From: Candidatus Bathyarchaeota archaeon
GTDB lineage: Archaea; Thermoproteota; Bathyarchaeia; TCS64
Direction: 5' to 3'
DNA length: 64,000 nucleotides
NCBI GenBank assembly: GCA_963771885.1
Contig: CAVYVF010000023.1
Span: 64,001-128,000, forward strand
Of this stretch, positions 13,712-25,502 are shown one piece after another; the first letter of the stretch is position 1; each line of letters begins with the position of its first letter. The notes beneath the pieces are model-generated. The model was not told the DNA's origin. It made no database searches and saw only the letters and a list, made by a program, of their open reading frames with translations. The position numbers and the translations under genes are program-made.

Positions 13712-13834
13712 GGGCCACCAGCTTCCCCGGCTTCGCGTCGCCGAAGACAACACTACCGCCGCGAACGGAGCGTGGTTTAACTTCCGAGTTCGGAATGGGT
13801 TCGGGTGGTTCCCACGCCCTATGGCCGGTAACCC
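13712..13834 (-). rRNA. rrf: 5S rRNA (stand-alone)
   Basis: Minus strand GGGUUACCGGCCAUAG...ACCCGAACCCAUUCCGAACUCGGAAGUUAAAC...GCUGGUGGCCC; paired termini; about 123 nt. Confidence 0.95.
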
Positions 13835-14394: not shown

Positions 14395-14527
14395 GGGGTC
14401 GTGGTCTAGACAGGTATGACGTTGGGCTCCAGAAATCCATTAAGGACTTAACTGACCCGTGAGGGGATGACGAGTTTTTGGAGCAGAAACCCAAATGCCG
14501 GGGGTTCAAATCCTCCCGACCCCACCA
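14395..14527 (+). tRNA. trnW: tRNA-Trp(CCA) with 56-nt intron at 37/38 (14433..14488); CCA end encoded
   Basis: Acceptor stem GGGGTCG/CGACCCC-A-CCA, anticodon stem TTGGG/CCCAA, anticodon CCA at 14429-14431, T-loop GTTCAAATC, TTTATTA box at 14361. Confidence 0.92.
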
Positions 14528-22881: not shown

Positions 22882-24198
22882 TTAGGATAGGTCCTTGAAG
22901 GCCTTGATCTCCATCCCCTGCGGGATGCGTATGCCCTCGGCGACCCTGTCGCCGACGACCACCTTGACGCCCTTTGACGCTGCTGCGTCGATGAGGCGCC
23001 CCGTCACGATCCCGTCGAATACGACCGCCTTGACGTTCTCGGCGGCTTTGAGCTTCTCGACGAGCTCGGCGACAGGGAACCGCGGCGACTCTGCGTCGTC
23101 GGTTCCTATGAGGGTCGCTTCGAGTGTGCCCCTGAAGCCCTCAACGAGGCCCGCGTATTGCTTCGCAAGGCTGGGTGGGGGCGGGGGTGCTGCGACCTCG
23201 GGTGGTCTCTGACGCTGCGGGCGCGGTCCCCTCCGCGGGGGTGGTCCGCGCTCCATACGCTCTGGTGCACGCTCGGGAATACGTTCGGGTACACGCTCTG
23301 GCACACGTTCGGGCACCGCCTCGGGCTGGCGCTCCTCGACCTCGGGCTGCGCCTCGACCCCGCTCTGGAGTGCTGCCCAGGCCTCCTCGAAGGTGACCTT
23401 GGCTTCCAACGCTGCCTTTATTTGGTATGGGTCGAGCTCCTCAACCTCAGAGCCTCTGGGGGCACGTGCAACGTACCTAGGTCTTGCGACCTGCGCGAGC
23501 TCCCTGAGTATGAGGTCGCCTCCGCGGTCACCGTCGAGGAAGGCTGTGATCTCCTTCTTCCTGGCGAGCTCGCGGATTGTCTTGGGTACCTTTGCACCCT
23601 CGACGGCGATGGATCCACTGATTCCCGCCCTAAGGAGGTTGATGACATCTGCCCTGCCCTCGACGAGGATTATGTCGTTGCGGGTGCTGATGTCGGGTGT
23701 GGCGGTGAGTCTCTCGCGCCCGTAGTGTACAGGCTCGATCTTCTTACTCTCCAGCCCAACCTGCTCAAGCATGACCTCGATGTCGTGGTGCTCCTTGACG
23801 TGCCAGTCGCGCATGAGCTCCTTAGCGCGCTCCTGTATGCGCTTGAGCTTGTCTGCGCGCATGTCCTTGATCGCCTCGACGGCGATCTTGGACTCACACG
23901 GGCCGACCCTGTCGACGGTCTCCATAGCCGCCGCGATTATGGCGGTCTCAGGCCTGTCTAGGCTAGAAGGTACCACGAGTGTGCCTGTGGTCTTGTCGTT
24001 CGCGGACTTGAGGTCGATGTCGATTCTGCCGATCTTGCCTGTGCGCTGTAGCTCGCGTAGCTCAAAGTCCTTGGGGAAGAGCCCCTCGGTCTGGCCGAAG
24101 ATCGCCCCGATCACGTCGTGACGCTCGACGACTCCCTCGATTATGAAGCGTGCATGTATCGTATACTTGACGCCTGTGTAGCTGTCCTTATCTCCCAT
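22882..24198 (-). CDS. dnaG: Archaeal DnaG (bacterial-type primase homolog, exosome-associated)
   Basis: GVVERHDVIGAIFGQTEGL, TOPRIM IILVEGRADV and FLDGDRGG, C-terminal FDGIVTGRLID. Confidence 0.95.
   Translation of the reverse strand: MGDKDSYTGVKYTIHARFIIEGVVERHDVIGAIFGQTEGLFPKDFELRELQRTGKIGRIDIDLKSANDKTTGTLVVPSSLDRPETAIIAAAMETVDRVGPCESKIAVEAIKDMRADKLKRIQERAKELMRDWHVKEHHDIEVMLEQVGLESKKIEPVHYGRERLTATPDISTRNDIILVEGRADVINLLRAGISGSIAVEGAKVPKTIRELARKKEITAFLDGDRGGDLILRELAQVARPRYVARAPRGSEVEELDPYQIKAALEAKVTFEEAWAALQSGVEAQPEVEERQPEAVPERVPERVPERIPERAPERMERGPPPRRGPRPQRQRPPEVAAPPPPPSLAKQYAGLVEGFRGTLEATLIGTDDAESPRFPVAELVEKLKAAENVKAVVFDGIVTGRLIDAAASKGVKVVVGDRVAEGIRIPQGMEIKAFKDLS
23257..23327 (-). repeat. 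Degenerate 12-bp coding tandem repeat in the dnaG linker
   Basis: Encodes PEAVPERVPERVPERIPERAPER. Confidence 0.8.
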
Positions 24199-24238
24199 TG
24201 CTATATGCAACTCTGTTCGTTGTTGTCCTGATTCACAC

Positions 24239-24398
24239 TAGCCGCGGCGCGGTCCCCTCCTATCTCCCTCTGGGGTTTCGCCCGGGTACTAAAACCCGTC
24301 CTGCTATGCTTCCATCCGGTGACTTGCGGGTACCAAGGGCGCTGTCGCGTCCTTTTCTACCCGCGGTGAGTGGGAATCACGCCTTCTCGGCGCGCTAC
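24239..24398 (-). ncRNA. Putative ~160-nt structured RNA / leader upstream of dnaG
   Basis: Consecutive GC-rich hairpins closed by UAGC/GCUA; AAGG-TTTTTATT promoter at 24427-24416; no credible ORF. Confidence 0.6.
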
Positions 24399-24500
24399 TG
24401 AGTCTTTCACCTAGGAATAAAAACCTTGTCGATCAAGCCTCCAGCCCACCGAACAAGGTTTTAAGAGGGTTTCACGGACCCTTATCTGAGGTACGTCCTC

Positions 24501-25502
24501 ATGGTTAAAGTCGCGATAAATGGATTCGGTAGGACGGGCCGCCTCGCTCTGCGGGCGGCGCTTGAGAGGGGCTCCAAGCTCGAGTTCGTCGCGGTTAATC
24601 GCGGCGACGCGAAGCTCCTGGGGCACCTGCTAAAGTACGACAGTGTTCACGGTAGGGCACCCTTCCCCGTCGAGGTGGAGGGGGACACGATAATTGCCGC
24701 CGGGAAACGCATCAAGGTGCTCAACGAATCGGATGCCGAGAAACTCCCGTGGAGGGACCTCGGGGTTTGGCTCGTCATCGACTCCTCCGATAAGTTCAGA
24801 GACAGGGACGGCGCTGGCAAGCATCTGAAAGCGGGGGCAAGCAAAGTTCTCGTCGGCGCACCGGGGAAGAAGCTTGATGCAACCATCGTCCTCGGTTGCA
24901 ACGATGGCATCTACGAACCGGCGAAGCACCATCTGGTGAGTAACGCGAGCTGCACTACGAACTGCGTAGCTCCAGTAGTCAAGGTGCTCAACGACCGCTT
25001 CGGGCTTGAATCCGCGATGGTCTCGACAATCCACGCCTACACTGGGAGCCAGATGCTCCTAGACAGGGCGGACAAAGACCTGCGCAGGGCACGCGCCGCA
25101 GCGATGAGTATAATCCCCACGACGACGGGGATGACGAGCGCTATAGGCGAAGTGTTACCTGAACTAAAGGGGAAAGTCGACGGGACCGCCTTCCGCGTCC
25201 CGACGCCCGACGTTAGCCTCATCGACGTCTCCGCAGTCCTCAAGGCAAAGCCTAATGCAGATGAGATAAACGCCGCCTTCAAGGAGGCCGCTGCGGGGAA
25301 GATGAAGGGCATACTCGGCTTCGACACGGAGCCCCTCGTCTCAGTCGACTATGTGCACAGCCCCTACAGCGCAGTTGTGGACGGCTCATCGACGGTGAGT
25401 AACGGCACGATGGTCAAGGTCGTGGCGTGGTACGATAACGAGTTCGGGTATAGCTGCAGGACGATTGAGTTGGCCGAGAAGATGGCCAGCTATGCAAAGT
25501 AG
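24501..25502 (+). CDS. gap: Type I (bacterial-type) glyceraldehyde-3-phosphate dehydrogenase
   Basis: VAINGFGRTGR, KYDSVHG, SNASCTTNC, FRVPT and WYDNEFGYS motifs. Confidence 0.95.
   Translation: MVKVAINGFGRTGRLALRAALERGSKLEFVAVNRGDAKLLGHLLKYDSVHGRAPFPVEVEGDTIIAAGKRIKVLNESDAEKLPWRDLGVWLVIDSSDKFRDRDGAGKHLKAGASKVLVGAPGKKLDATIVLGCNDGIYEPAKHHLVSNASCTTNCVAPVVKVLNDRFGLESAMVSTIHAYTGSQMLLDRADKDLRRARAAAMSIIPTTTGMTSAIGEVLPELKGKVDGTAFRVPTPDVSLIDVSAVLKAKPNADEINAAFKEAAAGKMKGILGFDTEPLVSVDYVHSPYSAVVDGSSTVSNGTMVKVVAWYDNEFGYSCRTIELAEKMASYAK

Follow-up and report, generated by a model that had tools for sequence, protein, structure and literature searches.

A structured 5' leader of dnaG restricted to one order of Candidatus Bathyarchaeia and its possible role in feedback control

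In a 64,000-nucleotide stretch of a Candidatus Bathyarchaeota genome (the window), a sequence rich in complementary segments lies immediately upstream of a gene for archaeal DnaG. A reading made from the letters alone (the sequence-only reading) proposed an RNA of about 160 nt, acting either as a leader of dnaG or as a discrete non-coding RNA. This raises the question of what the RNA is, where it begins and ends and what it might do for the gene that follows. The complementary segments listed in that reading were all found in the sequence, and its assignment of the downstream gene is confirmed: the dnaG coding sequence (22882-24198, minus strand, 438 aa) matches the archaeal model NF003108 at 443 bits against a cut-off of 300. 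Its ATG at 24198 is the start position of dnaG homologues too. No same-strand gene was found downstream of dnaG, the next long ORF being convergent. On the other side lies the divergent gap gene (24501-25502, plus strand; TIGR01534 above cut-off), considered here as context only, which has its own TATA-like box at 24459-24466 and is kept beside dnaG in 77 of 78 loci. It encodes a type I (bacterial-type) GAPDH; archaeal GAPDH is usually of the type II form.

The leader promoter (24416-24431, minus strand) consists of a TATA box at 24423-24416 preceded by a segment at 24431-24424 that we take to be BRE-like; the promoter string read earlier at 24427-24416 is present as stated. A T-rich box is found at constant spacing upstream of all 72 leaders compared here, and tRNA genes of this genome are preceded by a box of the same type. 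A scan for bacterial promoters and terminators at the locus returned none, as expected for an archaeon. Where tRNA genes have a recognisable TATA box, the gene in most cases begins 32-36 nt downstream of the first T in that box. With a pre-tRNA 5' leader of a few nucleotides allowed for, this spacing places the transcription start near 24393 (+/-2), at the G with which the 5' hairpin P0 begins, and not at 24398 as first proposed; in homologues possessing the hairpin, the same promoter spacing falls on it or a few nucleotides from it. The end of the fold was likewise corrected from 24239 to 24230. The RNA preceding dnaG is predicted to be a 195-nt 5' leader running from about 24393 to the ATG at 24198, a frame that replaces the earlier one of about 160 nt. 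By anchors chosen in this analysis, the 72 leaders are 162-200 nt long. With a start near 24393, the 5' arm of the UAGC/GCUA helix, formerly regarded as terminal, probably lies outside the transcript, and this helix is not conserved, with 51% of cells paired in the genus.

Between fold and start codon lies an unstructured A-rich linker (24216-24229, minus strand; median z +0.4). Its A fraction of 0.48 compares with a genome mean of 0.26, which ranks it in the top 4.5% when 1340 upstream windows, called crudely, are compared, and the family mean is 0.47. The linker is followed by a weak ribosome-binding site (RBS; 24206-24214, minus strand; -2.8 kcal/mol with the 16S 3' end), all nine columns of which are at least 90% conserved in the genus alignment (n = 22).

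By BLAST, the element was detected in 13 of 61 genomes, all of a single genus. A wider collection of homologues was therefore assembled from dnaG upstream regions fetched via the DnaG protein. Family f1 comprises 71 genomes: 64 with a complete leader, one (G080) with a truncated leader and six without the dnaG 5' end. The leader is thus present in 64/64 f1 genomes with a complete dnaG upstream region. The sole genome of the sister family f2 (G037) carries it as well, with the 5' hairpin missing. The working set of 72 sequences consists of 66 from 65 genomes, one of which (G004) is represented twice, and six metagenome loci, leaving out four apparent near-duplicate metagenome loci, G080 and family f4. 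The second copy in G004 (L076, G004:C31:4737-4928) is followed by about 20 codons of dnaG before unrelated sequence begins, possibly a chimeric assembly or a partial duplication.

Comparative folding reveals a common architecture on the dnaG strand, in one copy per genome and directly before dnaG: the 5' hairpin P0 is followed by the long-range helices P1 and P2, which have a CA internal loop between them and enclose variable hairpins. P1 and P2 were recovered unaided by RNAalifold, run on sequence-only alignments of both the genus and the full set. P1 pairs 24378-24369, an anti-Shine-Dalgarno-like strand, with 24239-24230, which is Shine-Dalgarno-like in most genera, and P2 pairs 24366-24361 with 24247-24242 (all minus strand). 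These two helices are 93% paired in the genus and were absent from the helix list of the sequence-only reading, the P1 3' strand lying mostly outside its span. The central C-G, A-U and C-G pairs of P1 each occur in 70/72 leaders; P1 of this genome has one C-U mismatch, at 24373. The unpaired CA at 24367-24368 belongs to a 2x2 internal loop between P1 and P2 and is present in 72/72 leaders, with variable sequence on the side opposite, and may constitute a protein-recognition site.

P0 (24379-24393, minus strand) is the best-preserved of the hairpins proposed earlier, with 94.5% of cells paired in the 22-sequence genus alignment and a segment z below -1.5 in 69/72 leaders. The enclosed elements, all on the minus strand, are less uniform: the variable hairpin P3 (24326-24360) has a median z of -2.0 and falls below -1.5 in 46/72, P4 (24284-24301) does so in 49/72, with inner pairs 88% paired in the genus and a shifted register in this genome, and the weakly supported variable hairpin P5 (24248-24283) is 75% paired in the genus and reaches z < -1.5 in 21/72. 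The junction J3/4 (24302-24325) holds a lineage-specific insertion missing from most other genera. P0, P3 and P4 remain hairpins despite sequence turnover.

Support for the long-range helices comes from pairing, covariation and folding energy. Across the 72 sequences, 92% of P1 and P2 cells are paired, compared with 34-50% in slid controls of the whole tested structure. Independent compensatory events, counted on a dnaG tree that covers 71 sequences of the set, number four in P2, two in P0 and two in P1; P4 and P5 have one tree event each, which is not significant. P1 gives little covariation because its central pairs are sequence-invariant. The P2 pair 24362-24246 is AU in 48 leaders, GC in 18, GU in 6 and unpaired in none of the 72, with three independent compensatory events, a count reached by 0/473 matched column pairs. 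G-U cells outnumber C-A cells 132 to 24, which fixes the strand of the fold. Folding energies agree: the span 24393-24227 has a z of -2.80, with 0/200 shuffles as good, a value reached by 3 of 140 upstream non-coding windows sampled from the 717 of this genome. The span proposed earlier also beats its shuffled controls, modestly so (z -2.11, 8/200 shuffles). Over all leaders, z is below -2 in 71/72 with a median of -3.9 (30 shuffles each), values that are somewhat inflated since leader boundaries were picked on structure. The strongest-folding of the 140 control windows is located at G000:C7:75925-76092 (plus strand) of this genome, with a z of -4.5.

Such a fold could simply be a constitutive stabiliser, the 5' hairpin and the fold guarding dnaG mRNA from 5' decay or setting a translation rate with no ligand involved. 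The position of P0 at the predicted first nucleotide and the wholesale swapping of inner hairpins between genera are what this explanation would lead one to expect, but a CA unpaired in 72/72 leaders and near-invariant P1 pairs exceed the needs of stability alone, and we consider it improbable.

The remaining helices of the sequence-only reading fared unevenly. The GCGGGUA/UACCCGC helix is 81-87% paired, yet it has a single tree event and is broken in several genera. Its 3' strand overlaps the P3 3' end (24330-24326), which is able to compete with P2 for one 5' strand. Measured as the alternative to P2, this helix is 87% paired and its one tree event is matched by 8% of null pairs. This genome favours it at the diagnostic pair (0.81 versus 0.19 for P2), giving a hybrid fold, and both helices exceed a probability of 0.1 in 20/72 leaders, and the two may perhaps interchange. 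In the 22-sequence genus alignment, the GGG/CCC and GGGU/ACCC helices hold in part, with 73% and 67% of cells paired. AAGG/CCUU (59%) and CGC/GCG (41%) are lower, which partly reflects poor alignment of a variable hairpin. Two other proposals are not conserved: the long-range AUUCCC helix, 62% paired on six author-chosen pairs, and the SRP-like AUG/CAU stem within J3/4, 39% paired in the genus.

A search of the 64-kb window against Rfam 15 returned a 5S rRNA and one tRNA only, the leader being without a gathering-threshold match. The 5S rRNA lies at 13713-13832 (minus strand). The Rfam tRNA match at 14395-14524 (plus strand) is an intron-containing tRNA with an insert of about 60 nt, assigned to Trp by ARAGORN with introns allowed. 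A permissive Rfam search of 24100-24600 gave only Vault, at 13 bits and E 8 on the opposite strand, and six homologue loci yielded only an unrelated tRNA. The earlier conclusion that the RNA matches no known family thus holds in the covariance-model search.

A divergent member of a known family, namely an H/ACA or C/D guide, SRP RNA or RNase P RNA, would find some encouragement in the ANA triplets that follow P1 in the A-rich linker, but the absence of an Rfam match and the separate SRP and RNase P genes make this extremely improbable. As the sequence-only reading had stated, the RNA is neither of the latter two, both being encoded elsewhere: a canonical SRP RNA is present at G000:C23:4201-4512, and the only RF00373 (RNase P RNA) match is at G000:C23:455651-455945. 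The echo of SRP helix 8 noted earlier proved not to be meaningful. The strict helix 8 motif occurs in 0/72 leaders, yet is present in the genome's own SRP gene, and the loose echo of archaeal SRP RNA (RF01857) is confined to this genome and two other leaders (3/72). SRP RNA is also about 300 nt long with a conserved helix 8, whereas dnaG leaders measure 162-200 nt and their stem is not conserved.

The likeness to H/ACA RNAs is that the leader also has a long stem followed by ANA triplets; it differs in that a 2x2 internal loop takes the place of the pocket, and neither a conserved K-turn nor an rRNA target was found. A K-turn pattern was found in at most 12/72 leaders at any one column pair in the fold, with any hit in 60 real versus 67 shuffled sequences. 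The best rRNA targets had 12, 7, 13 and 7 pairs in four genomes, none exceeding the range obtained with 20 shuffled rRNAs, the pocket criterion being rRNA complementarity around a U located 14-16 nt from the ACA box. These H/ACA criteria, including pocket and K-turn, follow an excerpt of PMC7991803. Boxes C and D occur together in 0/72 leaders.

The six genomes of family f4 have the same promoter, a shorter leader and, by eye, the same P1/P2 layout; their covariance-model scores of 3.3-10.5 bits are within noise, so the case for homology is made by position, promoter and a motif seen by eye. The f3 genome and loci from other orders showed no such leader by eye. With the covariance model, this genome contains a single copy, 116 class genomes outside the order gave no match above 16.4 bits and 150 genomes of the phylum gave none; the strong matches of the model are its own training sequences and lend no independent support. 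The DnaG protein itself is conserved outside the order, where the leader was not found. A pattern scan of metagenomes returned at least 118 loci, and among the matches listed 10 score with a leader HMM, exactly those preceding dnaG. Neither this genome, nor the class genomes, nor the metagenome matches listed contain a leader copy apart from a dnaG 5' end. Because the dnaG-gap synteny is kept throughout nearly all loci, the link between leader and dnaG represents one inherited arrangement and not a repeated association. The element is a real, previously uncatalogued and order-restricted structured dnaG leader of Ca. Bathyarchaeia.

Whether it functions as part of the dnaG message or as a separate RNA can be addressed through RNA-library contigs. 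In four runs from two studies, contigs extend across the boundary of leader and coding region (24017-24360, 23269-24288, 24170-24301 and 23942-24381); such contigs reveal neither strand nor ends nor level, DNA may be among them, and the runs placed are 4 of 23 listed. Among the runs placed, no RNA contig covers 24382-24494, and other holes exist too. Co-transcription of the leader with dnaG is thus weakly shown. Alternatively, cleavage or termination of the dnaG transcript could release a stable, separate ncRNA of about 165 nt that works in trans together with DnaG or the exosome. A strong conserved promoter of its own and a compact fold, which P1 closes and an unstructured tail follows, speak for such an RNA, but a run of four T after the fold is absent from the linkers of 72/72 leaders, the contigs continue past the leader into dnaG without a reported pile-up of ends (levels not being rankable from contigs), and every copy found adjoins a dnaG 5' end. 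A TATA-like word within the leader occurs in only 4/72. The bridging contigs and the lack of a T-run favour a cis-acting leader, and we regard the discrete RNA as quite unlikely. Of the two options originally offered, a conserved structured RNA co-transcribed with dnaG therefore stands and the discrete form is disfavoured.

We hypothesize that, through this cis-acting structured leader, DnaG or the exosome exerts feedback control on dnaG mRNA, a proposal to which we give about an even chance. A conserved, covarying, sense-strand structure in the 5' UTR, as expected of an autoregulatory leader, was found, and the invariance of the unpaired bases suggests a ligand. Transcription would start at P0, and P1 and P2 would close the fold and display a fixed face consisting of the three near-invariant P1 pairs and the unpaired CA, adjoining the A-rich single strand and the weak RBS. 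DnaG, either free or on the Csl4 exosome, would bind the leader once it exceeds its normal RNA substrates, and bound DnaG would lower ribosome loading and/or pass the mRNA that encodes it to the exosome, similar to the action of RNase E on the rne leader. Rrp41 and Csl4 are both encoded in this genome. Excerpted reports describe an RNA-binding N-terminal domain, poly(A) preference and rRNA binding for Sulfolobus DnaG (PMC4227792) and the docking of DnaG on the exosome through Csl4 (PMC3672285). A KY motif near the DnaG N-terminus, used as reading-frame anchor for the 71 tree sequences, appears to be equivalent to K6/Y7.

Evidence against feedback includes the modest A-richness of the linker (top 4.5%). 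In this genome, blocking P1 leaves RBS access unchanged (0.49 to 0.50), and in the available part of the Sulfolobus exosome iCLIP paper dnaG mRNA or autoregulation has 0 occurrences. Autoregulation by DnaG or the exosome nevertheless seems plausible, and, judged from sequence comparison, the leader probably controls the amount of DnaG, an RNA-degradation protein, through a putative binder.

By analogy, the dnaG leader would work most like the rne leader or an archaeal r-leader, and belongs to neither. The E. coli rne 5' UTR (hp2, hp3) is likewise a structured leader before the gene of an RNA-decay protein, and the pnp leader is a parallel case. Regulation has been shown for the rne leader, whereas the dnaG leader is known from sequence comparison and folding; RNase E cleaves RNA, whereas DnaG is an RNA-binding subunit of the exosome; and homology between the two leaders was undetected (no Rfam match). 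As described in an excerpted report, the rne branched stem-loop binds RNase E through essential internal loops whose sequence is not conserved, in contrast to the invariant CA of the dnaG leader (PMC13692253). Archaeal r-leaders (the eL15, S15 and L4 motifs of Eckert and Weinberg) are, like the dnaG leader, lineage-restricted structured 5' leaders, and the portion of that study available proposes that the RNA-binding protein encoded downstream is their ligand, in some cases through mimicry of rRNA (PMC7247131). The dnaG leader differs in that the gene following it does not encode a ribosomal protein and mimicry is weak.

According to the same portion, few cis-regulatory RNAs are known in archaea, and 'dnaG' and 'Bathyarch' have no occurrences in its main text (PMC7247131). 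In the literature listings searched, no description of this element was found, and neither was a cis-regulatory RNA for an exosome subunit. The natural RNA targets of archaeal DnaG are poorly specified, and a leader with an invariant internal loop offers a defined candidate substrate, making testable how archaea set exosome levels. The alignment and model define a new RNA family in an abundant uncultured lineage.

A more specific form of feedback would have the leader imitate the 16S 3' end, with P2 standing for helix 45 and P1 for the SD/anti-SD duplex, so that DnaG recognises it and represses itself. An excerpted report states that DnaG binds a 16S 3'-end transcript in vitro and enables its tailing (PMC4227792). 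Apart from one mismatch, 16S helix 45 agrees with the P2 consensus, at a chance of 2-29% depending on the distance allowed, and the matched form is present in 17 of 22 16S ends found. Because helix 45 of this genome differs from the matched form and chance accounts for 2-29%, the mimic is weakened. Elsewhere in 16S rRNA, two segments separated by 93 nt, presumably not paired with each other, match both P2 strands exactly. We rate this mimicry as doubtful; if true, it would create a feedback loop linking an archaeal exosome subunit to rRNA turnover. Two loop-proximal helix 45 pairs are flipped in this genome (G000; L108:2965-2999), G006, G008 and G013 relative to the 17 others, and G035 has an intermediate form.

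The Shine-Dalgarno-like character of P1 brings up translational control without DnaG as ligand, in which the two strands of P1 are an anti-SD-like sequence and a decoy SD. Once P1 is opened, whether by the ribosome, by some other protein or by a small molecule, the anti-SD strand would cover the RBS or the 30S subunit would load on the decoy, and P2 and the P3 arm could swap by branch migration. The duplex of the P1 3' strand with the 16S 3' end averages -8.1 kcal/mol by genus against -7.5 for the true RBS, but reaches only -4.5 in this genome, where P1 blocking is without effect. Blocking the P1 3' strand lowers RBS accessibility from 0.74 to 0.44, and blocking the 5' strand gives 0.57. In f4, P1 extends over the SD with an accessibility of 0.15-0.30 in 5/6 leaders folded, yet covariation is lacking among the six close f4 sequences. 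An AUG at -20 is present in 11/18 leaders outside genera g1, g8 and g13 but in 0/22 g1 leaders. P2 and the alternative helix are each above 0.1 probability in the 20/72 leaders noted above, against which stand the single tree event of the alternative helix (8% of null pairs) and its breakage in several genera. Leaders pair with their own RBS no better than with those from other genera (p 0.17 and 0.23). A riboswitch would call for two supported folds that control the RBS together with a metabolite ligand, and here too the observations are the single tree event of the alternative helix and RBS pairing that is not cognate-specific. On balance, we judge translational control without DnaG unlikely, though it is the main rival to feedback.

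Two related candidates were rejected. A J3/4-RBS pseudoknot appears to covary by eye, and its cognate pairs are no better than cross-genus ones (p 0.17); in the genus, pairing reaches 91% and one double change is seen. As for a conserved uORF or leader-peptide attenuator, starts and stops vary across the 72 leaders and the -20 AUG is restricted to some genera.

Several features of the translation start region may be recorded. The f4 leaders (L050, L052-L055 and L074) are about 126-134 nt long, with P1 directly over the dnaG Shine-Dalgarno sequence. The AUG at -20 is out of frame in L033, L038, L039, L042, L043, L046, L048, L078, L079, L090 and L102, representing five genera; it lies 3-7 nt past the SD-like P1 3' strand and opens ORFs of 2 to 68 codons. 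L057 (G037) has an AUG in a comparable position that shares the dnaG reading frame. In genera g8, g10 and g11, dnaG usually starts with GUG or UUG, and such weak starts would fit tight translational control. Three genomes (L035, L036 and L040) have ACG at the homologous dnaG start position, and in L035 an in-frame stop just upstream excludes a nearby GUG start.
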